64,000 nt of DNA from Paraspadella gotoi (Eukaryota; Animalia; Chaetognatha): the NCBI GenBank assembly GCA_051294375.1, contig CM119267.1:17028606-17092605 (forward strand), written 5' to 3'. The stretch's first letter is position 1. Every line of letters starts with the position of its first letter. Shown here in pieces: positions 16,952 through 64,000 of the stretch. A program made the position numbers and the translations under genes. The notes below the pieces were generated by a model. That model saw nothing but the letters and a program-made list of their open reading frames with translations. It was not told the DNA's origin and searched no databases.

Positions 16952-17935
16952 CATTGAATCAATTAATTACTTTGTCTGCTCAATTGTCAGATAAGTAGTA
17001 GGTACGATTATCTCTGTTTCGGTCAAAGAGTGAACCCTTTCTATTACATGGAGATTCCGATTTTGCCTTGTGGCGATACGGCGATACCTTACTCATACTT
17101 TGTCGAGTGACATGGCATACCACATGAAATTTCTTTTTTCGTTTTTATTGTGCGGTCATGGCGTTTAATTTTTGTTGTTTTTTTCTCGTGCTTTTCGCAA
17201 GAATTAAGAAGGGTTATTCTCTCAAATCTCATTCACCCTCACAATGACTCGCTAAATACTCTGGAGTAGAGCTTGATGGTAGAACAGATTTGTTTCAGTT
17301 ACAGTATTTTGTTAATTTTTGTTTGCTGCGGCGCCAAGAGCAAGGGAAAAATAAACTATTTGTCTTTTAATAATGATGAAAAATTAAACTCAGGATTTAC
17401 TATATTTATTTCAGCTTTTCGATTATTCCCTTATTCATCGCCGTAATTTTTTGTGAAAATTTTAGTTTTTTTAGTTGAATTTAAATATTTGGTTCAAAAT
17501 GGTGTTCAAACTGATAAATTCTCTGTTTCTGTAAAGGCATATTTTTAGTTTTTCTGGAACAAGATTGTAAAAATTTTTATTTAATTTTATTAGAATTTCT
17601 GCTAAGGAAAATAAATTAGAAAGTCGTTAGGTTTTGTTATTGTTCTTTTTTTCATATACATAGGTATAACCTAATTTATGAAATATTAAATTTACTTGCC
17701 TGATATTAAATAAGAATTACCATTGCTTGATGGTTTTAATAAGATTTGGTTTCATACTTTCGATCTCAAGTATTTTGTAATACAAAATCGGCGCTTACGA
17801 GATGTACGTGGTTGTTTTTTTTAGTTGCTCAAAATAATCTTAAGATAAGCTGAATGTTGTTGTTTATCCCTAATTGCTGTTGTACTTTAATTAAATATGT
17901 TCAATGTTTTGAATTATTGTATTTTCAGTTAAATT

Positions 17936-19429
17936 ATGGGAAATTTAGGAAAAATCGGTAAACCTCAAAAAAGTAAAAAGCACAAAAAACTTAAACCTTG
18001 CGACCCATTTAATAAAAACCCGAAAGGAAATCAAAGTCAAAAAAACGCGAACAAGGAAAAGAATCTGAAAAACAATGAAATCGAAAATCAAGAGATGAGT
18101 AGATCACTGAAAGAATTTATAAGAAACAAAAAAAAGGTAGGTCAAAGTTACCTTGTTTATAAAAGGCTAGTGTAACGTATATTATTTAAATTTTATATCT
18201 TATAATTTCGAATAGCTGCAGGGACAGCTAGATAATCCTAGCTCGCGGAAGAAATCGATTATACAAAAAAAATCAAAGGATAACGAGTTTCAAACAAATG
18301 AAGATTTTAAAGGAATGACAAGACGTTTAAGAGACGTTCCCAAGTTTAACCAAAAGAAAGGTACCGTTAAAAACTTTTGTCTGTCTTCATGAACTTGGTA
18401 CAACCAATATAATAATTGTCCATTCATTTAATAAATCTTGCCCCTGACTTTGGACAGGCTTGGGTGGTTTAAGGCATCCATCACTCTTACAAGATAATGA
18501 CATAGCCGGTCCCTGTAAGACTCTCTCAGTCTCGTTTATTCACTCCCAGAGTACCTGTCTTCCGTATCAATGAAGTGGAAAAATGTTTTAAAGAATGTTT
18601 CAATTGTATGAAAAGACCACTTCCTTAAGTATTAGTTGTTACATGTATACATGTTTTAGTCATGTTTATCTATTGTTAATTTTAAAACTATTCATAATCG
18701 TTAACAATTACAGGCGAACGCGATTTTCAATTTATTAAACGAGTCGAGGCCATCTCGCAAGAGGTCTTGGGAGCATCAAGGTTCGAAGACAAGTACAAAC
18801 TGAACGTCAATCCCACTGAGGAGGAACTAGAGAACAAGAAAAGAAAAAAAGAAGAGTGGAAGGCCAAAAAGCGTGAGAAGAGAGAGAAAAAGAAAAAGAG
18901 GCGCGGTGAGTGACAAATTAATCTTATGGACAAATTTCGAGTGGAGCTTTTAGAGAAATGTATTAAAAAACTTCTTAGAAACTTTATTTTTTCCCCATTT
19001 AACATAGGTAACGACGTGACTAATGCAGTCACGCAGTTGGCGGAGAAAAATCGGGCTCAGATTCGGCATAAAAAGTCTCTGGATTTTAACGATCTTCGGG
19101 ACGACGTTCCTTTCGGCGAAGTGGTCCTCGCTCCACCGACGCTCACTGCGATTCCTCGGAAAGCGGAAGTCTCCAACTCCCGACCAAAGAACTTACTTCT
19201 GGCGTCGATGGTGGGATCAAAGGGGATCAACAGCGACAACTCATCACGCGAGAAACACGAGCAAAATAAGAACAAAAACAATGGAGTGAAAACGAAAAAA
19301 GTCATGAAATTTAAAGACATGTCTGTCGCGCAAAAGGCCACCTTGATCAGGGAGAAACACCGGGTTATTGAACGATACAGAAAAATGCGCGATGGAACTC
19401 TGTTCGGGCGAAACACTGTGGCTGTCTAA
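17936..19429 (+). CDS. CCDC137: Coiled-coil domain-containing protein 137 (nucleolar)
   Basis: KKHKKLKPCDPF, QEMSRSL, VPKFNQKKGE, DDVPFGEVVLAPPTLTAIPRK, REKHRVIERYRKMR. Confidence 0.8.
18388..18497. repeat. ~110-bp dispersed repeat; copies at 41423-41531, inverted at 31692-31800 and 8126-8462 (split), fragments near 48770 and 54440
   Basis: Shared tggtacaaccaatata..tccattcatttaataa..atcttgcccctgactttggacaggct..ggtggtttaagg..ccatcactcttaca. Confidence 0.8.
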
Positions 19430-19525
19430 GCGTATTTAAGCGGAAACCCTTAGTTATTTCTTTGGAAGGTTTTGATTGTTCGTTTTGTTATTTTTAGATT
19501 TTTAGATTTAGCTCTATTTACGAAA

Positions 19526-22055
19526 ATGTCTGTACTTCAAAAAATCGCCGATATCGAGGCTGAAATGGCCCGAACTCAGGTATTTTGGGAGGGGAAAGGA
19601 GCCTAAATAGTAGCCTCCGTTTAAAGAAATCAATTGCAGCACCAATAAACATACTATTTTTTTTTTTAGGTGAACAAAGCAACGATGGGTCACTTAGGAA
19701 TGTTAAAGGCGAAGTTGGCTAAACTGAAAAGAGAGTTGATTGCGCCATCTTCCGGTGGTGGTGGAAAGGGCGAGGGGTTCGACGTCGCTAAGACGGGAGA
19801 CGCCAGAATAGGGTAACTGTTGCCTAATGCAATGAAATTTAGAAAATTAACCATTTCGATCTTTTAAATCTTTGTATTCTCGACGTAAATTTAGTTTCGT
19901 CGGGTTTCCGTCTGTCGGCAAGTCCACTCTTCTCACCAACTTGGCCGGCGTTTATTCTGAAGTAGCAGCTTACGAGTTTACCACGCTTACCACTGTTCCT
20001 GGAGTAATTCGGTATAAAGGTAATTTCAATGAAGTCTTGGATGATAATTATTTTTTTTTAAATCCTCGTTTCACTGAATTAGGCGCGAAAATTCAATTGC
20101 TTGATTTGCCCGGCATCATCGAAGGCGCTAAGGACGGAAAAGGTCGAGGGCGACAAGTAATCGCTGTCGCTAGAACCTGCTCCCTCATTCTCATTTGCCT
20201 AGACATTCTCAAACCGTTGGGTCACAAGAAAGTAAGTTCATTTGTATGTTGTGTCTGAATAGAAAAGGATGAGGCTCTGATAAGGACGACGAAGTGTTTC
20301 GCCCCCTTCGCGTCCGTTTTGCCTTGCTAGTGCCAGATTAATTTTTGAAGTGGACGCATTTCACGATGATCACTTTACTACATAAACATTACACAAGTAT
20401 GAAACGGTTACAACAAGTATCGATTTGTCACTTTTCATGAAATGTATGTACTTTAATAACCAAGTGTTACAACAAATAAAAGGCAACCGACTCTCTGATC
20501 ACTTGGTCAGTTGACCCATTCTAGTGAGAAACATTGACACAATAATTTAATGATACCTGACTTCTCTGCTAAATACATTATTAACTAATTATTAATTGAT
20601 TATTAATTAAAATTGCTAGAGTGTTATATGAATTGGTTCGTATATTTAGGTGATCACGTGACAACAAAATTTTAAAACACGTATGTAGGTTAAGCATGGT
20701 ACACCAAATATTAACTAAATCGATGCAGTATTACGGTATGTCACAATAAATTTGTATATATATATCATACTTCCGAAGGAATCGACCGAATCAAAGAGAG
20801 GAAGCCTCTTACTTTTGCTCTTTTTTTATAATTTTCGTGAGTTTGCGAGTAAAAGCTAGGAAAACGCCACCTGCTCCCTCCAAACATTTTGGAACAATAG
20901 AAACGACAATGAGCGTTGTTTTTCCCCGATGAAAGGAGGCTTGATATTTCGTCTTTGTATTTGTATGTTTGTATTTGTATGTTTGTCTACTACTCGCTCT
21001 GACTTACCTAGTCTCGTTTATTGAATAGTCGGTAAATCTTTCTTAAATATTTTTTCGGAATGCGCGGGTGAGAAAAAATTCAAATTAATGAGACTAGAAA
21101 TTTCAAAATATCTTTGCAGTTAATTGAACACGAATTGGAGGGATTCGGTATCCGGTTGAACAAAGAACCTCCTAACATCACTTACCGGAAGAAAGACAAA
21201 GGTGGGATTAACCTGACTTGCGCCGTTCCGCAGTCCGAGTTGGACCTGGATCTAGTGAAGGCGATTCTGGCCGAAAGCAGGGTTCATAACGCCGATGTCG
21301 TTTTGAGGTGAAGACGGACGCTTTTGCTCATATTATGATAAAAAAAATTTTAATGGTGCCATCTACATTTTATCAAACTTTGCTTTTCAGAATCGATGCC
21401 AAAGCGGAAGATCTTATTGATGTCGTTGAAGGCGATCGCGTCTATATCCCGGCGATTTACGTTCTCAACAAAATCGACCAAATTTCCATCCAGGTATTTT
21501 GGCCATTCGTACCGATAAGCATAGTAGTACGGTATTTACTAAATTCAGCATTTAATTGTCACTTTTAGGAGCTGGATATCGTATACAAAGTGCCGCACGC
21601 CGTTCCAATCTCCGCTCACCACAAGTGGAACTTCGACGATCTTCTAGAAACAATATGGGAATATTTAAAACTAGTCCGAATTTACACCAAACCCAAAGGT
21701 GTCATACAAATCGATCCGCATTTCGTTTCCCGTTCATTTTTAAATATATATATATTTTTTTGCGATTAAGGCCAACTCCCCGATTACAATGCCCCGGTTG
21801 TTTTGCAACGTGGAAAGACGACCGTTGAAGATTTTTGCATGAAAATTCACAAAAGCCTCGCCAAGGAATTCAAGGTTATAGCAAGACTGGTTATAATATA
21901 CTATGTAAGTAACCTCTATATAAATATAAGCGTCCGTATGTCGTCAACAGCACGCGATCGTTTGGGGTACTTCCGTGAGACACTCGCCACAAACCGTCGG
22001 AATCACTCACGTTCTCAACGATGAAGATGTGGTGCAAATCGTGAAGAAAGTCTAA
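19526..22055 (+). CDS. DRG1: Developmentally regulated GTP-binding protein 1
   Basis: [117 protein letters not shown]. Confidence 0.97.
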
Positions 22056-22268
22056 GGCCGAAAGCCGAAATGAAAAACAATTTTCGCTTCATTATTTGCA
22101 AAATGAAAAACTAATTTTTTAATTCGAAAATTTTGAGAAGGGTGGATCTTTCCCTTCCGAGTTTCAACGCATGGAATATACGGCTTACGTTTGTTGTTAT
22201 TGCTAAACTTCCTTTTCAGTTATTTTCATTTCATAATTTGCACTTGACTTTTTGTTAAAAATATCGCA

Positions 22269-23182
22269 ATGGAAGGAAGGGTAAACGGTTGGAGCAACGG
22301 ACGAAACGATATAAACTGCGAGGAAGACGACGACCTCAGAAATAACATAAATGTCAGTTCGGTTGTGGAGGACGCAGACAGCGATTCTGACTCGGCGCCG
22401 GAATCGGTATCATTTCAAAAAGGACACGAATTCTTTGAAAACTCTGATAAACTCCGCCTGAAACAGATCGAAAAGGTTGAAAATTTTAAAAAAGGTACGC
22501 AAATTTCCAAGATAATGATATATTTATTTTAAGACTGCCTTTTTGTAATCGATGGGTACCATTTTCTCTCACCAGAAAATCGAAAGAAAAGAGACGAGGT
22601 CTTGAAAGAGCAAAAAGCCGCTAAATTGAAGCGACTGCAAGAGAGTAAACTTTCGACAGACTTCCTTGAGAAATTAACGTCTTTAGCACATTCGGAGGTA
22701 CGTGGAATCACCCGTAATAATTATTTCTGTTTCTAATATTAATAAAATTTTCTGTGATTTATCAGGTCCCTACGGGCTCGCAATCAGAGGAACCCCTTTC
22801 CATTAGTGCCCCAGATGAATCTTTACTCGCTAAGAAAAGAGAGAAGCGAAAATTAATTCCGCTTCCGGACGTGGATGGCGTCGAGTTCGAAGTCGTCGTC
22901 GGGAGATCGAGGGCAGACGAAGAAGTCATGCGAAAGAGTAAGGGCGAGACGGAATTGTCCAACGATTTAAATTTCATATAAATTTTTTTTGTGGTGGATT
23001 TAGAGTAATCAACAAGCGGGCGTAATTCGAAAAATAAAATAATTATCCCATTATTTTATTTTTTACTTACAGCGGAAAATTTCATCAAAGGCAAGATCAA
23101 GCATCCGTCTAAACCACGACTCTGTCAAACTAGGAAGCAGTCATTAAAAATGAAAAGAAGATTTGTTGCCAAAACTCGTTAA
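22269..23182 (+). CDS. NOL7: Nucleolar protein 7-like
   Basis: SDSAPESVSF..KKENRKKRDEVLKEQKAAK..LSTDFLEKL resembles NOL7 APEELTF..KRKRREELFIEQKKRK..LPDTILEKL. Confidence 0.6.
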
Positions 23183-23251
23183 AACTGCTTATTGTTACTT
23201 GCTGTTCTGTTTTAGTCATCCTTCATTAAATTGACGTTTTCTTGAAAGAAA

Positions 23252-25786
23252 ATGGCTGATATAAGTGTACTTCCAAACGAAATTTTAGAGCACTTATTCA
23301 GATTTTTAGGTAAGACAGTAGGATAAGATTTTAAAAGAATGGAAGTTAGTTATCAAGGAGTGACATATTTCTTCATCTGAATGCAGATGGCGTTTCATTG
23401 GCCAAAGCGGCCAAAGTCAATCGGCGTTGGCGTCAGGTTGGCCTGCATCTAATGGATGATCCAGTAAGGCAATCATACTTAAAATATGCCCGTTTTACAT
23501 TCCTAACCTCTTCGCAAGCTTCTTTCCTCTTTCACGCAATTGTAGTTATGTTGGCCGCAACGTTGCATCGAAGAAATTCCTCAAACTATAAAAGAAGAAA
23601 TGATGATCGAAATCATGAATAAAAAAATTGTCTCGGACGTAAAGTGGAAGCAAATTTACTCTTCTTGGTGAATATTTTGAAATGGTGATAAGGTTACTTT
23701 GATCATTTCGTTGATGATCGTGAAACTTAGGTATCGAAGTCGATATATCGGTCGATGGGAGAGATTGAGGCAGTCGTTTCGGATCCAGGATGTCGTCGGC
23801 TCCCTTTCTCAAATAGCTTTTCACGACGACTTCGTATTCACATCTCACAATAACGCCAATTGTTCGTCGGTGAAACAGTGGGACGCTGTCTCTGGAGAGA
23901 TGCAAGTGCGAAATATTTAATTAAGCTTTTATTATAATATTTATGAGAATGACGATTATCCGTATCAGGCCACAATAGCTCGTCACCCTCCATGTCGACG
24001 TTATTTGCACCTCAACCTCCTCATTCCTGTGAGATGTCGATATCGCGAAAGAGTCAGGCTCGTTGACGCTGCGATTATCGTCGTCAGCACTTCCGATGCC
24101 GTTCGTGTCCATTCCGTAAACCCCAAAACGACGGTTAGTCCAAATAAATCGAAATACGAAAATAAAATGTTTCGACATCACTTTTCTAACTTCAAGAAGC
24201 TAGAAATAGCGACGAGTCGTTGTAAATCGTAGTTAGTATAAACAAAGTTTTTTGAAAATTGTCGGTGGATTGGAAAATACTTAAAAATAGTTGTAAAAAA
24301 AGGTGAAGTTGAAATGCGCTTTTATGGGTTCGTTGGTAGGACGTGTCCGAAGTGTGGCGTCACACGTTTTCTGCCGCTCCCACCACCGCTACCTCAACCC
24401 ATGGCGCAAATTCTTTTGCAGCTGTTGCTGAAGACGGAAGCGGCGCCGTTTACAGGTAAAGTCGCGGATTTGCAGTAGATACAAAAAGATGACCATTCTT
24501 AAATTTCATGATTTTCAACAGATTCGATTTCGAACAATCAAATGGGTTACGGGCCTCAGTGATATCGACGTTTCATTGTCCATACAAAGTAAGTAAGAAA
24601 TACGAGAATATGAATAAATTGTGATAGCGGATACTTGAAATTGGTTAAGTTTATCGGAAGCACCAAACTGTTGTTGAACATAAACATCACTGTTTAGAAG
24701 TGTCTATATTTGTTTGTAAAAGTCCTATGTTAGGTAAATGACTTGAGTATAAATTCAGTTGCACCATAATGAGATTGTCATAAAATTCAAAAAATGAAAT
24801 CATACTGAGATAAAACCTATTTGAAAAACTGATTTACAGACATATCCATTATGTATGGTAACGACTAAAGAAAACAAAAATTAATACGTCGTGATTTTTT
24901 TTTTGTTATTCTCTTAGCAATCCTCTTATCATTGGTATTTGCTCTCGTTCACCGCAGTTCGTCGAGTCGGTTTCCCTGTGGCGTGATTTTCTCGTCACAG
25001 GAAGCGGTGACGGTCATGTGGCCGTCTGGCGTCTCGTCCATCAAGAAGACCCCGACGTCAAACCAGCACAGCAGGCACCGCAACAGAACGGATTGAGGCT
25101 TTATCAGAGATTAGGTCTCGATGCCGATGGAGACGAAATGGAACTTGATCTTGTCCAGACCTACGGCACTCGGACGTTGATTACCGACGTGAGTTTTAAT
25201 ACTGCGATCGATGATGTTGGTTACTAATGTTAGTGTATTCTTTTTAGAATCCGAATTAGTAAACGAGTTAATAATGGTGCAAGCAAATATAGTGATAAAT
25301 TGTCGGTTTTAGGTTTTCATTCGGGGCGCTTCGTTAATATTCGTTAACGAAGCTGGTATTTTAACCCACCTCCGTGACGTCCATCAGTCCTCTCCGATTA
25401 AGGTAATTTTAATTTTTATAAACACCTCCATTTGCTAAAAGTTTTTTTCGTCTTTAGTTATAAAAAAATTAATTATGTATTTTCGTCTCTAATTCTCCAA
25501 GAAAAATCTCTTCGGCATCATCCAAGCACGGCCATCCGCTTTGACCGTCTACGGGTCTCTGCTCGCTCTCGGAGACGAGACGGGTAAAGTGACGGTGTTT
25601 CGCTTCGAGGGCGACCTAGATTTAGATTCTGTCCGATGGGAGGTGCCGGATGCGGTCTTCACCGTCGAGTCTGGTCGTCGAATAGATCAAATCGTCGTGT
25701 GCGACGACGGCGAGGGACCCACGTTGCTAGTCTCCTCTGGAAGAGGCGCGCTTGAAATCGTCAGATACTTTCATCCGAGCATTTAA
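23252..25786 (+). CDS. F-box / WD40-repeat protein
   Basis: F-box ISVLPNEILEHLFRFLDGVSLAKAAKVNRRWRQV; WD-like SSVKQWD, LVTGSGDGHVAVW, LALGDETGKVTVF. Confidence 0.8.
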
Positions 25787-25944
25787 TAGTTTAATTCAAG
25801 ATTTAGTTTTGTAAATTTGGATCGAAGATTCTATCGTTTTGTCATTGATTTTTCTACCCAAACCGTATATTGTTCGTGTTATTTTCATATTTCACTGTTG
25901 CATTTTTACTTCCTACGTTTTTTAGTCATAGCCCAATAATAAGA

Positions 25945-28701
25945 ATGAAAGACGACGAACCTTTCTCGAATCCCGTGGCTCCTTTCGCTCACGTGACCGA
26001 AAAGGAGGAAACGAAACCATTGAGCAACGATGATTTCAGGTTGTTCTTGAGACGCTGCTTATCAATTATGATCGGAACTGTGATAAAGGGTTCACCTGAA
26101 TTGCAGGAAATTGGTCATGTCAACCCGTGGGCCATCTCTCGCGGGAACGTCGGACAGAATTCTTGGAATGGCTCAATCAGTCAGGTGTTCATCTGCTTGC
26201 GAGAATTGCAGAGATTGTAACGATGATTGCGTGGGATAGAAGAAAAGATGAGGAAAGATAAAGAAAAAATGGGCGGTGATCCGATAATTTGGCATTCGTC
26301 AAATCCTCTGTTCGGTTAATCGCCTTATTTTTCTTTTCCTCCGCACTCCACAGGGGAGCACGAGTGGCCAACGCCGATGCCACTTCCAACGTCGCTCCCG
26401 CCGCCTCCTCTGCCGGACCAAAGCTCGAAAAAGCGGCCCTGGATCGGCGCCGAAAAAAGAAAGCGCAGTACCTGAAGCAGCGACAGCTGGAGCTGGAAAA
26501 AGAGGTGGAACTGGCCAACAAGTACAGGGACCGGGCCAAAGAGAGGCGCGCCCATCAGGAGAAAGAAGATATGGAGGGCGAGCAAGTCTCTGTGGTGAAA
26601 ACTTTGAACTTAACGATCTCCTTTATTGAATTGATTTTGCACTAATTCGCCTCGATAGACGACGACCCAAAATTATCATGCCGTCGATCCGACAGCCCAA
26701 AAGGGAGAGACCGACCGTCGGAGAAATCAAATTATTCAAGAGTCGAAATTCTTGGGAGGTGATTTTCAAATTTGGTGATGAGAAGCAAAAAACGAATTAG
26801 TCTCAAAGGAGAAATTGCCACACTGGAATCCACAGGATAACATCAAACATCATAACATAAAAATCATTTAAATTCATAAAATCACTTCTTTTCAAAGGTG
26901 ATATGGAACACACTCATCTGGTGAAAGGTCTGGATTACGCTTTGCTGCAGAAAGTTAAAGCCGAGATTCACTCGAAGGAAACTGGATCGGAGGAAGACGC
27001 ATTGGACGAAGTTTTGGAGTCTTTGTCTTCCAAAACTGAAGGTAATTACTTAATTCTGAAACAACATTGGAATCGCTGATTTTCTGCCGCGGATTGTCAA
27101 TTTGAAATCTTTCTCCAGCTAAATCCTTCGTTGAAGCCAAGCAACCATTCAAGTACGAACTGAAGACGAATTTGGCCAAAAACATTCACCGGATCCTTTT
27201 TAGCGGCGAAAGCCCGGAAAAGAACGACTTATTTGCTCCGGGTAAATATTGCACGTCGTGGCTTTTATTCGAAAGTTTGATCGCTCACGCGATTGATTTG
27301 GCGATGAACACAGGGCGCATGGCTTACCTGGTAGAGTTCGAGGAAGACTCGATCGAAACTGACGTCCCGACGACCGTGATAAGATCAAAGACCGAATGTC
27401 CCAAGTTAGACGCCAAATCTTTTCAATCTGCAAACGACATCGTCATTCAGAAGCTAACTCAGATTTTGTCGTATCTCCGACAAGGTTGGGGTGAACCATT
27501 TGTGTCACCAGTGTGATTTAGGCCAGCGTTTGGTCACTCTTAATCATTTCTTAATCGACCCCTGCGTTCCAGGCACTCGTGGTAAAAAGGGCAAAAAGAA
27601 AACTTTGAATAAGACGTCTGATCCCGCTGCCGAGGAGGGGATTTTTGCCAACGTCGACTTCCACCCAGTAATTTCGTTCAGTTAAGTGCTAACGACAGTT
27701 CCAATAGGTCAAAAGTTATTTTTTCGCAGATGCCCGACCGTCGTGTAGAAAACCGTGACCGTTCTCGAAGTCGAAGCAGGGACCGAAGCAGGAGCAGAGA
27801 TAGAAGCCGTAACTGGAGCAGGAGAAGAAGTGGTAGTGGCAACCGAAGAAGTGGCCGTGACCGAAGCAGGTTCCGCAGCAAGAGCCCTGAAAGAAGCAGG
27901 GAACGAAACCGAATCAGGATGCGAAGCCGAAGTCGGGATAGGGATCGAAACAGAAGCGTTAGACAAGCGGCGGGAGGGAAGAGGGGATATTTCGAAGAAA
28001 CAAACCAAAATTTGCAGGAGCCTCCGCCGAATTCCGCGGCCGAACTTATCAAAACTATCAATGCAAAGGCAAGTTGTGGACAATTTGTGAGTTAAATACT
28101 CCTTTTCAACTTTTGATTGTGAAAATCCTCGTTGCCTCATCTCACTAGTTCGCCCATTTTCCAAAATTGCAACAAGACGCTATTGCCAAAACAATCTCGT
28201 ATAAGCAGAGCATGGAATGCTATGCTGAATGTTACCCTGGAATGGAGATAGACGTTGTGGATTCAGATGAGGAAGCTGACTACACGAAGATGGATCAAGG
28301 CGAGTTTTCGTAATGCCAAATTTTCGTTGAATTTAAGTTTATAAGAAACCTCGTTCAGGCAATAAAAAAGGTCCTATGGGGCGTTGGGACTTCGATACTA
28401 CTGAAGAGTACAGCTCTTACATGAGTACCAAAGAAGCTTTACCAAAAGCCGCCTTTCAGGTGATTTACTACTTACTGTAGTTTTAAGTTTTGATATAAAA
28501 AATCTTTATTTTAATCGCTCTTTTTCAAAATAGTTCGGTGTAAAGATGGCGGATGGACGTAAAACTCGGCGGGTAAAGCCGCAAAACGATAAACAGAAAT
28601 TGGAACGAGAATGGCAGAAAATATCACGAATCATCGACAAGAAAAAGAGCGGAGCCACTGGGGAAGACGACGAATGGGACGACGAAAGGATCAGCTATTG
28701 A
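25945..28701 (+). CDS. IK: Protein Red (IK), spliceosomal B-complex factor
   Basis: EPFSNPVAP, LSNDDFRKL, KYRDRAKERR, IQESKFLGGDMEHTHLVKGLDYALLQKV, YAECYPG, DSDEEADYTKMDQGNKKGPMGRWDFDT, KEALPKAAFQFGVKMADGRKTR. Confidence 0.97.
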
Positions 28702-28881
28702 CATTTAATGGCGTTTTCTTGAGACTGTTTAAAAAACTCAAATTTTTTTTCTCTTTAAAACCGAATTTTCTGACAGTGTTGCGTTGACAGCTCTAGCGAT
28801 TATCAACTTTGTTTTTCCTTCTTAAGATTTCTATAGTTGAGAATTTTCTCCGTCTCAAACCATCCCACGCTATTCGACATA

Positions 28882-29578
28882 ATGGCCGCAAACCAGGTTG
28901 TTCTCGCGTGTTATTCACTAGTTACGCATGTGAGTTTTTAATTAATTAATTTTTTAAGGAACGCACTTTCATCATGGTTAAACCTGATGGTGTCCAACGC
29001 GGACTTATCGGAGAAATTATTAAGCGCTTCGAACAACGGGGCTTCAAACTGGTCGCCATGAAGTTTATGCAAGGCTCCAAAGAGCACCTCCAACAGCATT
29101 ACATCGACCTCAAGGTTCTCACTTTAACAGGCTTTAAATTTTTCACAATGATTAACTATTCGTATTTGATCTAACTTCCGATTTTAGGGAAGGGGTTTCT
29201 ACGATGGCCTAGTTGATTTCATGTCTTCCGGTCCGGTGGTCGCTATGGTTTGGGAAGGAAAGAACGCTGCCAAAGCAGGACGAATGATGATGGGACAGAC
29301 TAATCCTCAGGTAAGATTAGTTTATCGTGACATTTTTTTAACATTTCTAGTTATACCTCTGAGACTGGCTTAACGACTAAAAATGTTTTCTCTGTTCCCT
29401 TCCCCGAAAGGACTCCCTCGCCGGCTCCATCCGCGGGGACTTTTGCCTCGACTTGGGTCGCAACATCATCCACGGTTCCGATTCCAAGGAATCCGCAGAG
29501 AAGGAAATTGCGCTTTGGTTCCAGCCGGAGGAGCTTGTCTGCTGGACGCCCAAAATCAACGAGTTCGTTTACGAATAA
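28882..29578 (+). CDS. NME1: Nucleoside diphosphate kinase (group I, NME1/2)
   Basis: [63 protein letters not shown]. Confidence 0.97.
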
Positions 29579-29828
29579 AGTCCCCTCATCGGAGAAAATA
29601 ATCAACTTGGAATTTACGAAATTATCCCAAATATCTTTTTTACATTTTATCCAATTTTTGTTAATTTCGAAGATAGTTTATAGTTGTTAAAATTGTTAAA
29701 TTAAAATTTTTTCGCGAAATTCGAATTAGTTTTTAGAAAGTTTCTTTCTTGTTGAAAAAAAACATTGAAAGTAGAGCTTGGGACGTTCATTTACCGCAAA
29801 ACATGAGGCTAATTGAAAAATTTAAAAA

Positions 29829-32800
29829 ATGAATACCACGGGAGAGACGACTACCAATTCCGTCTGGAATAATCACCAACTTGGTACGATCGTATTTTCT
29901 CTCGGTTATTGATTAATTATATAATCATATTTCTCTCTGCCTAACAAGATTCCCGCCAGCGTCTACAACCGGTTCTAAAAGTCATGCTTTCGGTGACCGT
30001 GTTCACGATTTGCGTTTGGTGGTCGCTTCCTTTCGTCGCCATCTGCTACGCCGAGGTCGCCGAAGCGTGGACTGTTCACGACCCACCCAAGGTTTTGAGG
30101 CAATCAGACGATTGTTGCGTAAATCCATTGATAAATATCAATTTCCACCCCCTTCCACTTTCAGATCCCTATTGTAATCATCGGAGGCTATGGGGATCTG
30201 GCGAAAAAGTATTTGTGGCAGGGGATTTACAACCTGCACGAAACCTACGGAGGCGAGGATCGGTCGCCCTTGCTAATGTACTCCGGCGGAAGAGCAGACT
30301 CTGAAGTAAGTTTCGAGGTTTTTTACCTAAGTTTTATCCGGACTCCCAAATTAAAACTTTTACGCCACGAATCCTTAATTTTAGGGCGGTCAAAAAAAAA
30401 CTTCGGATGCGTTGGCCAGCGGCGTGTTTTGCGCGACTGGCGACGGTGTTTGCCGCCGCAAGAAGGATTCCTTTGTCGAACGCGTCAGTTATTATCGAAT
30501 GACAGAGGAGAGCGACTTTGACGTTTTCTGCCGCAATTTGACGCTTATCACCGGCGGACGGGAGGAAGGAAGGTTATTTTATTTGTCGGTAGGATGAAAA
30601 ACTATAAATATCTTGATTTGAACTGCTGGTAAAGAATTCGGTTAAACATGTTTAGAATGTTACAGGTTCCTCCTTTCGCTTACGGAAAAATCGGCCGATA
30701 CATCAACGCCTATTGTCGCCCTCCGGTTAGTACAGTCCACCCACAATGGGATTTTGCGGCCCGTGCCCTTCTATTGTTAGGACTCTGATCCTCTTTTGTT
30801 AGGTTCCCTCAGACTCGGCAGACCCGAAACCTTCCATAGTCGAAAAATCTTGGCTCCGTGTGGTCGTCGAAAAACCATTTGGAAAAGATTTGGAGTCCGC
30901 GGAAATGATGTCCAAGGAGCTCTTGAAACATTTTGACGACGAGGAACTTTATCGTATCGATCATTACATGGGTAACTACTCGTTACGGAAATGTCTCTTG
31001 CGAACAATTAACCACACTGACAAAAATAGCGCGTATGATTTCTACCGTGAAAAAATTTGGTCTCTGATTTATTTTGTCTTCATTTTCAAGAAGAACAAAG
31101 GGGATTACAATGTCAATTATGTGACGTACATACTACATAATCTCCTTGATTAAAATTCTTCCCCATCTTCCTTTTTTTTTTGGTCCCTCATCCTCTTCTT
31201 TCTTTCCCTCTTCCAATTTTTTTTTCGTCTTTTCGCCCTCATCCTCTTCCGTTCTCGCTTCCTCTCGCTTTCTCTCGCTTCCTCTCGCTCTTCTTTCTCT
31301 CTCGCGTTTCTCAAGGCAAGACGACGGTCCGAAACATTCTGGAATTCCGTCATGTGAATCGCGGAACTGGAATCGAGTCTCTCCTCAATCGTGACCACGT
31401 CGATCGCGTCGAAGTCGTCGTCAAGGAGACGCTAGGATGCAAAGGTAAGGGAAGAGACTGGGTAGCTTGCCTTGTCTTTTCGCAAAAATAATCCTATTGA
31501 ATAAATTACAACCGATGTTAATTTTTAAAATATCTATCTATCATACCCCCACTATAACTTAAAACTTTGTTAAATGCATGAGATATTTAATCAATTTTTT
31601 GAGCATCTGCATATGTAAATTTCAAATGATAAGGTGTCTCATAGCGTTAAATTTAGAATTTCAAATTGTATATAATTAAATATTGATTGAAAGCTTATCT
31701 TGTAAGAGTGATGGAGCCCATGAACCACCAAAGATAGTCTGGGGCAAGATAGCTTACTTATTAAATGAATGGATAGTTTTTATATTGGTTGTACTAATTT
31801 CCTAGGAAGAATGAACTATTACGACGATTATGGTGTCGTCGCCGACATGATGCAAAACCATTTGACGGAAGTCGCAATTATGGTAATTATTCAAATCAAG
31901 GTCATTATGTTATCGTTTTTCGCTTAGCAAGTTGTTTTTGTTCTTTTTAACTTGGGAATGCTGGCTAGGTGGCCATGGATTTGCCGAACGATCCCACAGA
32001 TTCAATCGAAGTTGAAAACAAGAAACTGGAGACATTGGGGGCGATTCGTCCGCTGGAACTTTCTTCTACTGTGTTGGGGCAGTATAGCACGTATAACCTC
32101 GAGGTTCGTTTCGCAAACGTTTCAAGAAAAGGTGGAAAAACTTCAACAATGCGTTTCTCCACTACAGGCAGCGCAGGAGGCAACTCTCGATAAATCCGGT
32201 GCTTCGACCTCTGGAGACCAAGTCTCTCTTCCTAGGCGTACGACATCGTTGACGCCCACTTTCGCCGCCACAGCGATGCACGTCGATAATAATAGATGGT
32301 GAGAGGTGGCTCAATAATGTGCGTGATAATAACTAAGGATGTGAAATTGTGCCCTTTTCCACATTGTACAAAAAAATGCACATTTATTAATTTTTTTCAG
32401 GCTTGGCGTTCCCTTTGTACTCATGACGGGAAAGAAACTTGACGAACGCATCGGTTATGCGCGGATTGTTTTCAAAGAAAATCTTTTCTGCGTTCCAAGA
32501 GACGCGAACATCGACGACGCCCTTGATCACGTTCGTTTTTTATTTTTTGGGTCGCTAATTTTTCAGATTTTATTTGTAGAAGATTATAATCGTTTTATTA
32601 ATGTTGAGTATTAAATTTTTTTGACAGGGTCCTTGCCAAAAGCGCGAGTTGATATTTCACATCGCCCACGGCACTTTGAAACGGCCTTCAATTCTGGCGT
32701 CCAAGTCTCTGCCACGCCCCCTTGCACCAGAGGGGTGGCGCGAGACGACCAACATGGGCGGTAACCTTGTCTTTGGCTCCAACAAAGGCTCTGCGTTTAA

Positions 32801-34274
32801 TGTCTTCTCATCGGTCGAAGACGAAATAGCTTACAGGTTGTAAGAAATATTGTAGAAACCATTACTTTAGAACTTTGTTTATGGATTCATTAATTAACAG
32901 CTTTCTCGTTCGAGCCGTGGTCAGAGGACAACGTGATTATTTCCTCAGCGACGAACATCTGATGGTAATTGAAAAAGTCATAATTAAATCCTGTTATTCG
33001 TTGTTTAATATCGTTGCTTACTTTTTCTCAAGTCTTCCTGGAAAATTTGGTCGCCTCTGGTGAAAGCTGTTCAAAAAGTGAAACCCAGATTATACAGTCA
33101 ACTAAAAAACAATTTAGATAATTTACGATTCTTTTACGACAAAGGCGGAACTCTCAGGTGAGGTTATGAAACAGTGCTCTACTATAATTCAGGTGATCAA
33201 TACGAAGAAAGTCTCTTTTATTCTCTCATCAGGTTTGTGAAGAATTTTGAGAGCGGAGATCACGAATTTTCGAAATACTCCCGCGCCGCCAATGTTCCTC
33301 ACGGCGAAGTGACGCTACTTAACTCCACCGTGGTCCTTGGTGAGTTTGCTTCGATTTTAGACAAAGAGCAAATCCTCGATAAAAACGCTCTTTCCCTGGC
33401 CACATTAAAGGAACGACGACCGAAGTCGACTCTGCCTTGGCATTGGCGGTCAAGAAATTGGCGCGAGCTCGTGTTGCGTCTTCCGGGTCATTTCATATGG
33501 CTGTTCCTGGCGGTGCGTCGCCCAAGGGTTTTCTTCGCTTACTCGTCGCTATGGACGACTTCCCTTGGAAGCAGGTTAATTGCATTTTAGCGATTAATTA
33601 ATTAATTAATTGCATTTTAACGATTAATTAATTGTTTAATTGATCTTGAACAGACACACGTGTGGATGGTGGACGATCGCATCGTCCAATTTTCTCATCC
33701 GCATTCTAACTTCGGTGCCATCTCTCGGACCCTCCAACCCGCCGCCCTTTCTTACGACCACCTTCATCCGATTCCCGTCAACCTCGCTCCGAGTCTTGAG
33801 CCGCATCTCATCGCGGCCGCCTATCTACACCAGATTAAGACTACAGTACAAAACCTTGCTTTCGATGTTGTCGTTCTGGGATTAGGAGTCGACGGTCATG
33901 TGGCGTCGCTTTTCCCGGAAGATGTCGAACTCTACTTCCGCGGAAACTTGGCCTCCGAAGAAGTCGTGGTAACTCGAAAAGGAAAACCGTCCGAAAATGA
34001 TGACGAGACCGTAAAACAAAAATCCTTGTCGGGAGAAAAGTCCACAGTGTCAACTGAGCGAGTGTCGAATCGCGACGTTCCCAGGGACAGAGTCAGTCTA
34101 AACTACAATGTTATCAACGCCGCTGGCAGAGTATTTGTTGTCGCAGAGGGAAAGGGTAAGAGGAAGATCGTTCGGAGACTCAAAGAATCGGACCGCAAGG
34201 AAAAATTGCCTATCGATCTCATATCTAGAGAAACTCTCACTTTTTTCGTTGATTTGGAAGCGTGGAATGTTTAA
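29829..34274 (+). CDS. H6PD: Hexose-6-phosphate dehydrogenase (ER GDH/6PGL bifunctional); alternative start 29984
   Basis: Hydrophobic N-terminal segment, GGYGDLAKKYLW, LSVPP, RVVVEKPFGKD, YRIDHYMGK, YGVVADMMQNHLTE, RWLGVPF..GKKLDER, then 6PGL domain PGGASP, VWMVDDR, LGLGVDGHVASLFP. Confidence 0.93.
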
Positions 34275-34648
34275 GGGAAAACTGCGTTGTCTGCTCGTCA
34301 GAATTGATTGTTGATTCTTCTCAGTTTTTTTCTATTACGATTTTGATTTAAATTCGTAATTTGATTTATTATTAATTTTAATTTATATTTTTTTTACTGT
34401 TTTCCGTATTAGGCTTATTCAGAATTATTGAATTATGATTTTGACGGTTCAATGAGCTGATTTTTTATATCTTTGATTATTCTTCTACGTTTTGTTTTTT
34501 TAGGTCTGACAATGTTTGGTCATTTTTTCAACCTGTAAACACAACCCTACCTTCGTAACTGACTGATACTTTTAAAACCTTTCATCATAATAAATTCTGA
34601 TGTATTTATAACTGCTAATCTAGAGTTCTCACTGATCTACGCTCCAGG

Positions 34649-37600
34649 ATGAAAATGAGTTTGGCAGTACAAGTTTTCAAGCAAGCAGATACCTTAAAAG
34701 AGAGTTTTGAAAATGAAAAAAATAGTAATCCGGAAAATTGGCCCGAGCGACAAAAAATACAAGGTACAATATTGTAAATTTTGCCATATGTTATCATAAC
34801 TTAACGAAACACTTGCTTATAGATCTTTATCAACGTTTACTTCTTATGGATTTGGAATACGCTTTGGACAAAAAAGTAGAAAGTGATTTGTGGAATGTGG
34901 CCTTCAAGAACATCATTGATGCTCATCATTCCAAGGCGGCAAAAGGAAACGCCATGAAGCGAGCGGAACAACAGGCTTCTCTATCCTTGTTTCTTGAAGC
35001 CGCTTCTGGATTCTACTTTCAATTTATGCACGACGTATGCTGCGCGTTTAGCTTGGACCTGCCGTTTAGGCGAGTTATACCTTGGTTTTCGGTTTAGCTT
35101 GTTATACTTCAATATTTTTTTCTATTTGGTGTTTAGGAGAAAATCTTCACGTTTTGGCATACTACATGAACCTTCACCAGCAGCTTTCGAAATCAAACCA
35201 CCTCGGAAAAGTTCTTGCTTTTATTTGTTGCAGGTCGAAAACGTTTTCTTTTTTTTTAAATACAAGAGGCGCAAAAGCCAGGGAAAAAAAATGAATTACC
35301 GTCTTATCGAAGTCTAAAAATAGGTCCCAAGAGTGTTTTTACATATAAAATAAAAAATCTTTTTTTCCTTTGCAGCATATTCTCGTTCATCTTGGGGACA
35401 TTGCTCGGTACAAGAAAAGCTCAAAGCAGGCGGAAACTTTTTACAAGCACGCCGCCGAGTTGATACCAACTAATGGGCAGCCTTATAATCAACTAGCGCT
35501 GCTGGATATGCAAAAAGTACCCGTAACTTAAATTTCTTAAAGGACTTACCTGTCATATTCGTAAATGAGTCTTTATTCTTCAGGGATATAAGTTGGCAAC
35601 AGTTTATCATTACATTCGGGCCGTAGGAGTAGACCATCCTTTTCCAGCCGCGGCGACGAATTTGGAAAAGTTTTACGAAAAACTGAGCAAGGAATTGATT
35701 CCTTCCTTGAGACAAGTGCGTAATTTTATTGCTATACTTAAAGGCTTATTATGATTAGGTTAACATTAATTTTATAAATTGCATTTTTCAGAAATCGAGC
35801 GTAGATAATTTCATCCTGACGTTTTTGATCTTCAATTCGTTGTTGCATTTGCGGGAAAACTTTTCAAAAGCGAAAGAGTGCTTTGCTTTCTTGTCGACCA
35901 TGGTGAGGAGAAAGCCGATCGTTTCGGGTTTCGAACAAATACCTTTTGATTAGCCTATTTTTGTTTCTGTTTAAGATCTGTACAAACGGGATGCTTTCAA
36001 AAATGTCACCGGAAGATCTTCACTTTATGACGTGCGTTTCTGCGTTTACTTTACATCGAGCCGATGATCACGATGACTCGCGGAAAGACGGAGATGACGA
36101 CGCTGATTACGATAGTGGGAGAGGCGAAAAACTTTCTGGTGACGAGTCGGTGGTTTACGACTTAAGTCTTGACTTCCTTGTGACCCTTGTTTCAGGTGGG
36201 AATACGCCATATTCCTTGTGCAGAAATTGTTTGAAAAATCTTTTATCATTTGTCCCTTTGCATTAGATCTTATTCTAGAAGTCACAATGAAGAAGGATTC
36301 TCCGAAACATCACAAATTTCTTGCCGTAATTAAGTTGGTTCTGGCTCTCATATCACAATCGCGGATGATTTTTGAAGGTTTGTTGAAATTAAACATTCAA
36401 ATTGAATTTATAGATTTAATTTTATCCTTATTAAATGCAGGTTTTTGGGTGAAAGAAAAGTCTCAATTTTGGCCTCATTTGGCGTTTTTGTTAAATTCTC
36501 TTCAACGAGATTCAACATTGCAAAATTGCTCCGAGGCTAATTGGGCAAAGTATAAAATTTACCCAATGCCTGAAGGTAAGCGTTCGTGAGATTTTTTGAA
36601 AAACTTGTAAATCAAGATATGTAATTTGTATTAAAATCGCACTTCTCCAGATAGAGCATTGCAGGGATTTCTTCCGTTGAGAAAATATATGAAGAATTTT
36701 GATTTCCCGACATGGAGAAAGAAATTGACGCAATCCGATGGATCAGAGGTCATCACCGTTGGTATGATTAAAATAGTTACGTACGATACTCAAATTAAAA
36801 ACTCATACGATTAGAAAACTCAACGTTTTTATGTTTAGAAGAACATCCGACCGTTCGAGCTCTGCACGTTCTACAGATCGGAAAGCGTATCGCAGAGAAC
36901 CTTGGAAATCTCCGCCTTTTATCTCTCGAAGAAACCAAGTCGGGAAAGATGCACTTTGATTCTGGGATTCAGGTGCAATGCGAAAGCGCAATAACGTCTT
37001 TGCAGTAGACATCATACATATGGATTAATTTTTCAGATGACCGATGATCACCGATTCACCGATAGATCCCAAGACTCGCGTCCTCCTCTCCGTAATCAGG
37101 CGTTGGGACCGAGATTCGCCAATCGTGCAAATCGCCAGAACGTCGCTTTACAAGTATGCCGGATCTGAAGAGTCTTCCACGTCTTGACCAAATCAAATAA
37201 GTTTTTATTCGTCTAAGAAAAAATTTCTCGTAGGCGTTCATGTCGAATCCTTCCCGACAAGATTCTATTCCGCTGCCTTCGCATCCTCTTCATCCCCCGA
37301 CGAATTACCCTCCACTGGCCAAACCCACTCTTCCACCGTTCGACCCGTCGCGTTCTGAAATGCCTCCGGTCCCACCATCGCACATTCCCACTCCCTCCTC
37401 TGGTCCTCATTCCCAAATACCCGCGGTTTTGTCTCAAATTCCTCGTCCGACCAATGTCCAAATCCCACCTACTCCGACCAATCTTTCCCATCCCTTACCC
37501 GCACAAATCCCGCCTCACCTCCGTTACCCACCTCCACCATCCGTTCATCATCGAGAGTTTCCAAACTCTCCCGACTCGGTTCTCACGGCCCAACGGCCTG

Positions 37601-38930: not shown

Positions 38931-39129
38931 AAAAAAAAAAAATTCGTTTTATTTTCCAGATGCTTTGCCTTTGAGCGTTATATTGCTGTTATTTGTGGTT
39001 AGACAATTTTTTTACTTTTTTTAGAGTAATGTTTTAATTCGGGAGAATGTAACTTTTTGTTGAAAGACTCGAATGTTCTCTCTTCTGTAAAATGTATCAT
39101 ACGACAATTCTATACTGCACTCGTTGACG

Positions 39130-39537: not shown

Positions 39538-40055
39538 AGTCGGGTCCCAGCTTGAATTTATTTTCAATTTTTTGTTCCATTGAATTTTTCGGTAATCCTC
39601 TCCAGCTGTGTTGTTTTATTCTTATAAACTAGCTTAACCTTCGACCTCAGAGATCTCTTATGCGGTAGCTGATTAGGATATGGAGTTAACTGATACATTT
39701 TTTTAGCTGTATAATTTTAGTTTTTTTATTTTGAAGCGTTTTATCACTCATATATGACTTATTTAATGTAATATTTACATTCATAACGCTCTATTTGGCT
39801 TACTTTTCTTTCTTTATTTTTAGAACTCCATTCTTTTAATTTATAATCATTACTCATTAGTTTTCATTCCCAGAAATTGTAGATAGGCTGCAGCTATGGG
39901 TTTATTATAGTCGTGTGCTTGTTTGCACTCTCTGCATTTGTGCTACTCCGAAAAGATGAATTTTAATAACTTTTAGAGAATAACTCAATAAGGGTTTTCA
40001 ACGAAGCCCATTTTCAAATTTTCGATTCCCCTTGGAAAAACTGTTGACATACACC

Positions 40056-40836: not shown

Positions 40837-40874
<38 letters not shown>

Positions 40875-49349: not shown

Positions 49350-50152
49350 ATCGATGGCGCTTCGACGGACGGAATAACGTTTGCCGTTACTTTTTGATTT
49401 GTGCTTCCATCCGCGAATTAAGCGCTTTTTACGACTCATTTACGACTCTCAATGTGTAGTGAAGTTACGGAATCTGTTAAAAAGCCTGGCCAAGACGAAA
49501 TGTTTTTACACAAGTTTTTCACACTTTCATTTTGATTTTTTCGATCAACTCAAATTCTGTTTGATATTTTATTTCCATCGAGTTCCATCTGTTATCTGAC
49601 CAAAAAGTGGTGCCGAATTATTTTTCCTTATTTTGAAGTTTTGTGTTTTTCTTATTTTTATTTGTTAATTTTTCGTTGTTGTAATGTTATATATAAGAGT
49701 TTCAAGGTTTTAATTCTTCATTTAAAAAGTTTTCCTCGTCATAAATGAGTAGCCGTTTACTAGAACATTTACATATGTATTTACTTACGTTTGTATTTTG
49801 GTTTTATATTCTTAGGAATAAGCGTAGTTTTTTTTTAATCGAAAATCCGTGATTTGAAGTGCCATCAGTGCCCCGGATGTAATTTCTTATATTTCTATAA
49901 GTCTTATGAATTAGTTTTGCCTTAATATAAAGGTCCGTTATAACGGCGTTATTCGGGTAATTTCTCACGTCCTAGTTTTCTCAACTCATTTTTTTTTTCA
50001 ACCGCCTCTTATCGTTTCAATTGAAATGAACAAAAAATACAGACGCTTGTATTTATTGTACGATGGAATCTATTTTTTCCAGCTTAAATCAAGGCTGTCT
50101 AGAAAAATATATATATATATTTTTTTATAAATGAGCAACTTTTCCATTATAA

Positions 50153-57414: not shown

Positions 57415-57634
57415 GAGCGTTCTTGCTTTTGATGTCATCATAAGAAATGAGCAGAAAAGCAAATGGCAGAAAACCTATAAACTTTAAAAAAATGTTTAGT
57501 GAAATCTGATGGCATTTTCATGTTTTCTGCATTACTCTGCTGATTTGTTTGTTCGGCTTATTTTACTAGTTTACTCGTTTCAGGAACATGAAAGACTTAT
57601 ACTTGCTATAGCGCTAGACTAACTTTGATGCAAA

Positions 57635-58084: not shown

Positions 58085-58318
58085 TCTCACCAGGCTAAAA
58101 GAAATTAAATAGTTCCTGCTAAAAAACCGAATCTCCAATTTTTATTTATTATTTTTGGAGTTTATATCGTATTTTACTGCGCAAGTCGACATTTTTCTTC
58201 TTATCAATTTTACACAGATACATATCTCTTAACATTATTATTGTGGACCTTTTTTACGCAACTATGACTAAATGGCCGACTTTTCCAAAGTCGAAAATCG
58301 ACGGACGTTAAACGATAA

Positions 58319-61300: not shown

Positions 61301-61791
61301 TTTACCTTCCAACATCGACGCGGAACTCTTTCACGCCCTCGACGCCGCTGGTGTTGATGATTCAACCTTCCCTCACTTGGCTAAATGGCGGCGTTGTTTG
61401 CGGTACCGCCACTCAGAGGAGGAGCGTCGCAAGTGGCCGTCGACTCCCGGCCTCACGAAGCCTAAGAGAGGGACGAACCTCGGTGCCGGAGAAGTGTCCG
61501 ACTTTTTTCCTTATCAAACAGGTTTTACACCAGTTGGGGTTTTTAATTTATTACAAACGTAATTGAATTTTTTTATAACTTCTATTTTTTATTTTTTGTA
61601 TAGGGCTAAGGCCTTTAACATTAGCCTTCGAAACGACGCCGACCATTCCGAGGAGAAAAAACTCTTTGTCGAAAAAGACAATGGACTCCTGTAGGAGTCG
61701 GTTGTACGACGAACTGACCGTTGACTCAAACGACAGCGCTGACTGTGTTAACAGTTGCAACAGTGATACTGTCTTCACATCTGAAAGATGA
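58319..61791 (+). CDS. ANKLE2: Ankyrin repeat and LEM domain protein 2
   Basis: VKKCPGARFKEF..EAEIFA; FKAPKPQEL; IWSNPRYLISSGDTPTI; DLYINLPDKGANDTPLHLACKYGH; YAGPMS; DSEKGLEHEARQLA..WRERWEFLG; FVKGDLPSNID. Confidence 0.93.
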
Positions 61792-62841
61792 CCACAGCCG
61801 AAGCTTTTTTTTTTCAATATTTTTAGAGACTGATTTTGGGATCTGTGCATCGCCGCGCTGTTATATTTTTTTCTGTTTTCGATTAATCGTACTGACATAA
61901 TTCTTTTAATTTTATGGTGGCTAGTTTTTTAAATTTGCATTGTCAATTCGCTCTCTTCCGCCCTTCTGCTTAATACGAGAACAGTTTTTATAGTAAATGG
62001 GAAAGTATTTTCCTTGGTCGTCCGTCCAACGAATTTAAATTTCATGGTGCCAAAGTAATCAATATTTTTTAACGTTGGAAGAATTTCATCCTAATGTAAG
62101 TTAAGTAATTTAAAGTAACCTCGGTCCTGGCCATTTTCAAAAGTTGCGAGTTTTTCAAAGTTTGATGGAAGCTAAGAAATTAGCCACATATTTTGGTTTA
62201 TGAGAGCTGACGATTTTTTTTTGTTCAGATGGGTGAAAATTATATAAACCCTTTGAGCTTGACCCGAGAGTTCCGGTTTTAAAATCCAGGAAGTTGATGG
62301 CTTTAACAATTGTATCTGCGGCGTCTCTGCTGCTGTGTGTACTGCCACAAGCAGCAGCGGAATCGGTTTTTAACTGGTCTCCAAATATTTCGGTGTTATG
62401 AAAAAACGCACATTAAATTTTGTAATATTGTCATTTCAAAGTCTAAGATTAATCAGTAGTTTTTTTTTCACGCTTGATCTTGAGCAGTTTCAAGGCGTCG
62501 AGATTTGAAAATTCTGTTCAATTCTCTGAACGCCCGTACTCTACGATCTATCCCTTTGTATTGAAATTATTATTTTTAATCATAACGTTATCGCTCTTTT
62601 TTTCTTTTTCTGTGAGATCGATTTACAGATGCCATATATTGTTTCTTAAAGTATTTTTAAATAGTACTGTTATTGAGTTATTTTTATTAGAATTTATGCA
62701 CCGCCACAATACCACCTTTTTATTTACAGTACGGAATTATACGTACTTAATGAGTGCCACGATTTTTTTTTAGCGTCAATCCTTTCGGGGAATTGCAGTT
62801 TCAAAATATTTTAACTTTATTGAGCGAACTTCTGCTACAAA

Positions 62842-64000
62842 ATGACAGAAAACATGTTCGGAGTGTTGGAAACTATCTCGGATCAGGCATCCCAACTTAC
62901 TGCTTTTGTTGACAAATTGCGCGGCGATTTCGAGACGGAAACCTCAAGAACAGATGAAGCGAAAGTAAGGAAAACTAATGAAGTTTAATGATATCACTAT
63001 CGTATATATTATATAAAATATATTGTATATGCATCTTATTCTTTTTTTTTTTTCAGAATATCGGATTAAGCTATCTCGACGTGAAGAACCTGCTCTTGTT
63101 AAATTATAATTGTGACATTGCTCATGTAATTCTGTCTAAATGCAAGGGAAGGTATGATATTCCACTGAGGCTTAGTTCATTGTTTGAGGGGACGGTGACT
63201 AATTAATCTGTCATCGTTTCAGGTCCCTCGTCGATAACCCCGCCGTCGATCGATTGACGGAAACTAGGACGGTGATGGAAAAGACTCGCGGCGTTGATCT
63301 CAAACTGAAGTACCAAATCGAAAAGCTCGTTAGAGCCGCCACAGTCGAAACTCAAGGTTAGAAAGCGACCATGACCATTCTTTACTAGTATCGTTTAGTT
63401 GTCTCGAGCGGATCGTGCAAATTCTTGGCAATCGTCAATTCTTCAAGCTTCATAATTGTTTAGATAAAGACAATCAATGCAACTTTAATATAGGCGCGGG
63501 TAACGATCCTCTCAGCTTCCGCCCGAATCTGACCGGTTTTGACGAAGACGATGACGTTGACGGAGATGATGACGATAAAACTAAATCGAAAAAGGACGGC
63601 GTGTATCGACCGCCTAAGTTAGCCGCAGTCAGATACGACGGCGACGATACTGAGGCGGTGAAGAGGGAAAAGCGGGCTAAGATAAGGTCCAGGGCTGTCG
63701 CCAACGCTGCCTTACTCAAGGTATTTTTTTTTCCATTAAAAAAAAAATCACCCAATATTGGCGATGTTATTAGTTATAAGTAAACCTTTATTTCTTATTT
63801 AATGTAACATTGAATGTTTACTTATTTCGTAGGATCTTGATCTGGACCGTGAAGAGCCAGAGGAAATATTCGAGAACAACGTTCACCGGTTCAAGGAAGA
63901 TCGAAGATTAGCGGAAAGAACCAAATATGAAGAGGACAACTTCACTCGCCTTGTACTGACCAAGAAAGACAAAGGTGAGAACTTTTAAGTGATTCTTTGT
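62842..64000 (+). CDS. NGDN: Neuroguidin (Lcp5 homolog), 3' end beyond window
   Basis: GLSYLDVKNLLLLNY..AVDRLTETRTVMEKTRGVDLKLKYQIEKLVRAA..DPLSFRPN..GVYRPPKL..ERTKYEEDNFTRL. Confidence 0.93.

Follow-up and report, generated by a model that had tools for sequence, protein, structure and literature searches.

Candidate spliced-leader acceptors along an operon-like run of co-oriented genes in a likely chaetognath

The 64,000-nucleotide stretch of DNA analyzed here (the window) carries a long series of genes that point the same way, many of which begin shortly downstream of a pyrimidine tract ending in AG; the subject of this study is whether these AGs serve as acceptors for spliced-leader (SL) trans-splicing. 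Gene models for 18 genes were built by hand and refined by script to keep the reading frames open. All 18 are + strand genes, spread over about 55 kb between 8775 and a point past 63357, and no minus-strand gene was recognized by eye in the open reading frame (ORF) list over the same interval. Leaving out NGDN, the models contain 121 cis introns with a minimum length of 59 nt and a median of 81 nt (118 GT..AG and 3 GC..AG). Pfam searches found RhoGDI, an MFS carrier, an HMG box, RED/IK, NDK, G6PD plus 6PGL (H6PD), a nucleoside transporter, an acyl-CoA dehydrogenase, and ankyrin families, with further matches under the curated cut-off to EST1 (SMG7), Sas10/Utp3 (NGDN), and F-box. The identities of TUSC2 (whose homologues are 50-65% identical), DRG1, and adrenodoxin (FDX1) were supported as well. 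CCDC137 and NOL7 had no Pfam match, and both names come from a first-pass annotation of the window; SLC17A9, ANKLE2, and ACAD9 are used here as what we presume to be the exact orthologue names. Rfam gave zero matches within the window.

The core of the series is a run of nine genes, CCDC137, DRG1, NOL7, F-box, IK, NDK, H6PD, SMG7, and TUSC2 (17936..39537, + strand), with stop-to-AG spacers of 33-229 nt. From CCDC137 to TUSC2, the distances from stop codon to AG are, in order, 68, 164, 33, 139, 125, 158, 229, and 94 nt, and all eight junctions fall under the operon rule of PMC12460157 (co-oriented genes, <250 nt apart). AATAAA is present in one of these eight spacers, a signal too weak to use.

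The first-pass annotation had listed 11 pyrimidine-AG motifs ahead of start codons and read them as SL trans-splice acceptors. All 11 are present. Its coordinates mark the G of each AG, with one exception: 57582 marks the A, and the G is at 57583. When scored with an acceptor matrix trained on the 121 cis introns of the hand-built models, these AGs fall between the 38th and 88th percentile of true cis acceptors, and in 8 of the 10 genes concerned the listed AG is the best-scoring one within 160 nt of the ATG. Better-scoring AGs were found for CCDC137 (17823-17824, as against 17927..17928, a motif that lacks high-depth contig cover) and for NGDN (62728-62729, as against 62772..62773). Motif scores also mark the candidate acceptors of TUSC2 (39023..39024, 94 nt past the SMG7 stop) and of an orphan 149-aa ORF (57582..57583). 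Comparable AGs that the list did not contain precede SLC17A9 (12321), HMG (16030), NDK (28825..28826), ENT (43232), and ANKLE2 (58216..58217), and a weak one, likewise unlisted, precedes H6PD (29735..29736). Every one of these sites is on the + strand.

At 15 of the 18 gene starts, the best AG within 160 nt of the ATG scores at or above the median of cis acceptors. Long-intron interiors on the + strand gave an expectation of 5.85 such starts and the - strand gave 5.21, with 15 reached in 0 of 3000 draws in either case, and dinucleotide shuffles of the same windows gave 9.09 (P=0.001). With the observed count above each null, the AG set is real, though no single site is proven by its motif alone. 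The annotation itself carried the caveat that such motifs arise by chance in AT-rich DNA, and about half of the windows do qualify after shuffling.

To place RNA 5' ends, we used contigs from one public run (X1) aligned over 16000-35900 and 19300-39250, a range that spans 8 of the 11 listed AGs. X1 is taken to be RNA, which is supported by joints that are mostly GT..AG at modelled introns. Contig ends were derived by arithmetic from the depth per bin and the record coordinates. For DRG1, the aligned part of the contig includes 28 nt of untranslated region (UTR; bounds 27.9-28.3) and starts at 19498, and the contig has 33 nt ahead of the ATG. For SMG7, 114 nt of the first bin are covered (bounds 113.7-114.2), from 34504, and 1816 of the 1821 nt of the contig are placed. 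Both contigs begin at AG+1, that is, directly after the acceptors of DRG1 (19496..19497, +) and SMG7 (34502..34503, +), and each carries five unaligned 5' letters; the raw sums for these letters are 4.0 and 5.6, and the integer and model-based counts are 5 and 5. One DRG1 bin stands at 178.8 against 178 in the model, which we ascribe to a small extra record. The same arithmetic puts the end of the F-box contig at 25854 by record length, and hand bin arithmetic agrees. The tandem second AG of DRG1 (19504..19505, +) is not the main start in X1, as the contig from 19498 passes through it. As a side observation, the SMG7 5' UTR (34504-34648), unspliced in the contig, contains two upstream ORFs of 8 and 3 codons, and the presumed TUSC2 5' UTR (39025-39129) contains four short ones; upstream ORFs on the mRNA of a nonsense-mediated decay factor may permit feedback.

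Chance T-rich AGs, or initiator-like promoter elements with a separate promoter for each gene, could account for the motifs, since about 9 of 18 windows qualify when this AT-rich DNA is shuffled and four sites read TCAGT or TTAGT, which resembles the initiator consensus. We regard this explanation as scarcely credible, given that the observed count lies above all three nulls, that the first aligned base of two contigs is precisely AG+1, with extra letters ahead of it, and that a 3' end plus a promoter would hardly fit into spacers of 33-94 nt.

What the five unaligned letters might be is suggested by the published chaetognath leaders. Every leader in Table 3 of PMC2481426 ends in A, and SL1 and forms 2-4 have exactly their last five letters (TTAAA) in common. 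The last unaligned letter is probably not G, because the alignment would otherwise extend onto the AG. If a gene carried two leader forms, a de Bruijn graph would fork six bases 5' of the junction, and a non-G stub of five letters would remain. The common TTAAA end of SL1 and the other forms would thus explain both stubs.

A leader was found on the closest orthologous transcript of DRG1. The transcript-like metagenome contig L001 encodes a DRG1 with 345 of 366 aa identical to that of the window (94%), the next best of the 32 loci compared having 298, and its first 16 nt are the 3' end of the chaetognath leader SL2.0 (PMC2481426, Table 3). This 16-nt end has no exact match on either strand of the window or in the other 79 loci. 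A full-text literature search with the L001 leader string returned no match, though its first 16 letters sit inside the Table 3 sequences of PMC2481426. The chaetognath leader is described as unlike those of other phyla (PMC2481426), and assignment of the window to the chaetognaths, which rests on the L001 leader match, is likely. Two further leaders were noticed among the compared loci. L018 and L023 share one at their 5' ends, which we take to be larvacean, and their DRG1 matches only 282 and 281 of 366 aa; the DRG-family transcripts L030, L031, L033, and L034 have a second common 5' leader.

The contig starts at AG+1 for DRG1 and SMG7 and the leader on the orthologous DRG1 transcript support what the annotation had inferred. 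We conclude that these AGs very probably accept a spliced leader in trans, within an operon-like run of genes from a likely chaetognath. In the mechanism that we propose, one promoter would transcribe several genes, and at each unpaired AG the spliceosome would attach a 36-nt leader encoded by an unlinked SL RNA gene, so that every gene yields a capped mRNA of its own. The upstream message would meanwhile be cleaved and polyadenylated within the short spacer. A given gene would receive several leader forms, a pattern already published for Spadella and Paraspadella; P. gotoi has three leaders.

A number of observations weigh against this conclusion, the first being that contigs cross the AGs at 22219, 23215, and 29736 genomically, unbroken. 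A contig piece at 21949-22492 covers the DRG1 stop, the spacer, and the candidate NOL7 acceptor (22218..22219, +; 164 nt past the DRG1 stop), and by its length this three-gene contig continues through NOL7, the candidate F-box acceptor (23214..23215, +; 33 nt past the NOL7 stop), and the F-box gene. Another piece (29409-29882) joins NDK to H6PD across the weak AG of the latter, and one contig fits SLC17A9 plus HMG within 6 nt, again by length. Contigs therefore join three of the eight core junctions in addition to SLC17A9-HMG, although they do not prove single molecules. The annotation had expected RNA 5' ends to stop at the AGs with foreign letters attached. Among the eight AGs in range, this is seen at 19497 and 34503, whereas 19505, 22219, and 23215 are crossed, and the contigs are uninformative at 17928, 25925, and 39024. 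Genomic read-through, which it had set against its own inference, does literally occur at 22219 and 23215, but operon precursors give the same picture.

These joins could mean that trans-splicing takes place at some sites while the bridged AGs (NOL7, F-box, H6PD, and HMG) are little used, the genes concerned remaining on stable messages of two or three genes or having UTRs that overlap, and single contigs with depths of 286, 424, and 475 do span these spacers unbroken. We think this unlikely. A contig that joins genes neither proves a single transcript nor excludes leader addition, and the assembler may drop a short leader branch and keep the precursor path. The AGs at 22219 and 23215 score high (88th and 70th percentile of real acceptors). 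Moreover, in the RP S14-PCNA operon of Spadella cephaloptera, 3 nt separate the upstream poly(A) site from the acceptor that follows (PMC2481426), an arrangement that favors such joins.

The second point against concerns cis donors. We searched 14 spacers (the remaining 4 of 18 starts were omitted as uncertain) for GT donors above the 10th percentile of real donors, and 2 of 14 had one versus 5.07 expected, a depletion that is not significant (P=0.063). The description of the acceptors as unpaired accordingly holds for 12 of 14 spacers but not for ACAD9 or, marginally, NOL7. ACAD9 has a good cis donor at 49957, so that the AG before it (50081..50082, +) could be a trans acceptor or the cis acceptor of a 126-nt 5' UTR intron. 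If each AG were instead the end of a short cis intron in the 5' UTR, with a small upstream exon that had been overlooked, good donors such as those at ACAD9 49957 and SLC17A9 12245 would be accounted for, and the GT at 19432 would make a 66-nt DRG1 intron in which a few exon letters would also stay unaligned. This is very improbable. Besides the 12 spacers that lack a donor above the cut-off, the sole DRG1 donor scores -3.6, under the 5th percentile of real donors, and the 33-nt F-box spacer is shorter than the smallest intron (59 nt) and so has no room for one. Equal 5-nt stubs at two genes are unexpected from unrelated exons, and the DRG1 orthologue L001 bears a leader.

Further points against trans-splicing at these AGs come from the stubs and from the RNA itself. 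The identity of the five stub letters rests on inference. SL1 makes up <1% of leaders in S. cephaloptera (PMC2481426), and if it is absent, the common end of the other forms is 9-13 nt, not 5. No leader-like loose end occurs at any acceptor among the three loose ends listed for 19300-39250, which are a 30-mer at IK, a repeat, and the next TUSC2 exon. All of the RNA evidence comes from one contig run, inferred to be RNA, that may derive from the source sample. The candidate IK/RED acceptor (25924..25925, +) is followed 8 nt later by the start of its contig, at 25933, with 30 foreign letters. We considered this loose end as a leader and rejected it, for it is not joined at the AG, is not in the window, ends unlike the published leaders, and reads as coding in one frame; the IK contig start is likely a chimera with another mRNA. 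The 5' ends of CCDC137 and NDK have no high-depth contig cover in X1, which carries no weight.

Finally, a quick DRG1 tree, for which a careful search is unfinished, places the window clade beside nematodes (support 97). The tree contained no named chaetognath protein; the nearest DRG1 relatives are environmental sequences (93-95% identical), and named relatives are at most 82% identical. Neither this tree nor the TUSC2 homologues placed the organism. The same mechanism operating in a nematode or other trans-splicing animal, instead of a chaetognath, would suit this placement, but it is most improbable given that L001 bears a leader reported as unlike those of other phyla and that the DRG1 of L018 and L023 is much further from that of the window. 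Long-branch artefacts are mentioned for chaetognaths in PMC2566580.

Returning to the extent of the proposed operon, it likely comprises at least the nine genes from CCDC137 to TUSC2 and possibly twelve. The SLC17A9-like and HMG-box genes (12386..17638, +), joined in one contig by length, are a possible 5' extension. The HMG 3' end at 17638 lies 28 nt past the AATAAA at 17610 and 186 or 290 nt before the candidate AGs of CCDC137, and the operon may therefore start there. FDX1 (40056..42303, +) is a possible 3' extension, preceded by T-rich AGs at 39706, 39823, 39873, and 39976, and its candidate AGs lie 169-439 nt past the TUSC2 stop. Units may be bounded by the gaps of 733-1442 nt that precede SLC17A9, ENT, ACAD9, and NGDN. 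A second unit may consist of ACAD9, the orphan ORF, and ANKLE2, with spacers of 169 and 133 nt ahead of the latter two. The orphan ORF (57635-58084) is intronless, with a basic tail and a strong AG of its own; it had no Pfam match and no homologue among 36 candidates of near length.

The sequence upstream of the candidate trans acceptors differs from that upstream of the cis acceptors. In the 53 nt 5' of the AG, TGTT occurs 1.57 times at 14 candidate trans sites versus 0.50 at the 121 cis sites (p=6e-4), and TAA 0.57 versus 1.98 times (p=7e-5), in a post hoc contrast for which 19 features were tested; it could equally be explained by the character of 3' UTRs or of downstream elements. TTGT and TACG are likewise more frequent in the upstream tracts of the candidates and A is less so, and a G directly follows the AG at 2 of 14 candidate sites versus 62 of 121 cis sites (post hoc). 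We tentatively raise, as a doubtful extension, a single operon of twelve genes that reaches from SLC17A9 to FDX1 (12386-42303) and whose trans acceptors are marked by a TGTT-rich, TAA-poor upstream tract. If so, the operon would exceed the nine genes of P. gotoi and Macrostomum and the 11 of tunicates, and the tract would be a candidate signal by which arrow worms tie leader addition to 3' end formation. Neither PMC2481426 nor PMC12460157, as far as consulted, describes cis signals by which a site is spliced in trans and not in cis.

Trans-splicing and operons are already published for chaetognaths (PMC2481426, PMC12460157), and the known mechanism is unchanged here. What the locus adds is a long, base-resolved likely operon with acceptor coordinates, in a phylum where trans-splicing arose independently, and a warning that assemblers fuse these genes. 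In P. gotoi, 10,197 of 21,072 genes are trans-spliced and 18% are in operons, the longest of nine genes (PMC12460157); the present run has nine by a strict count and up to twelve by a loose one. Like the chaetognath operons in these two papers, it consists of co-oriented housekeeping genes with gaps <250 nt. Chaetognaths use several 36-nt leaders ending in A, with no operon-specific leader reported in those sources, and SL2 is the form on L001. The genes of the run differ from those of the Spadella operon, which has two, and from those of the nine-gene operon of P. gotoi (ribosomal proteins, ubiquitin, and proteasome). We did not find its gene set in the literature, and SMG7, DRG1, and TUSC2 are absent from three supplements of PMC12460157, though the P. 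gotoi operon spreadsheet may list it.

Operons reach 11 genes in tunicates (PMC4122922) and 9 in Macrostomum (PMC8629364). In Ciona, Oikopleura, and Macrostomum, leader addition resolves polycistronic clusters and there is no dedicated downstream leader (PMC7986045, PMC4122922, PMC8629364), as would be the case here. The median gap is 1 bp in Ciona and about 30-60 bp in Oikopleura, versus 33-229 nt from stop to AG here, and the window differs from tunicates and Macrostomum in its canonical introns (118 GT..AG and 3 GC..AG, median 81 nt) and its other leader. The SL1/SL2 operons of C. elegans resemble the run in their spacers of about 100 nt with a U-rich acceptor at the end (PMC7986045), but nematodes use a specialized SL2 for downstream genes, and none is reported in chaetognaths.

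Several repeats were also observed. One repeat of about 110 nt is dispersed among introns, at 18386-18491, 41425-41531, and 31695-31801, with a summed X1 depth of up to about 34,000. Two intronic copies of another sequence, at 45560-46050 and 56093-56275, are 83% alike across 186 nt and had no Pfam match; they resemble the end of a non-LTR retroelement. In SLC17A9 and ENT, introns contain tandem arrays whose related units are about 20-22 nt long (13580-14170, 43890-44190, and 47710-48460). A long inverted repeat pair seen by eye at 515-2280 and 3700-4800 is probably transposon-derived.

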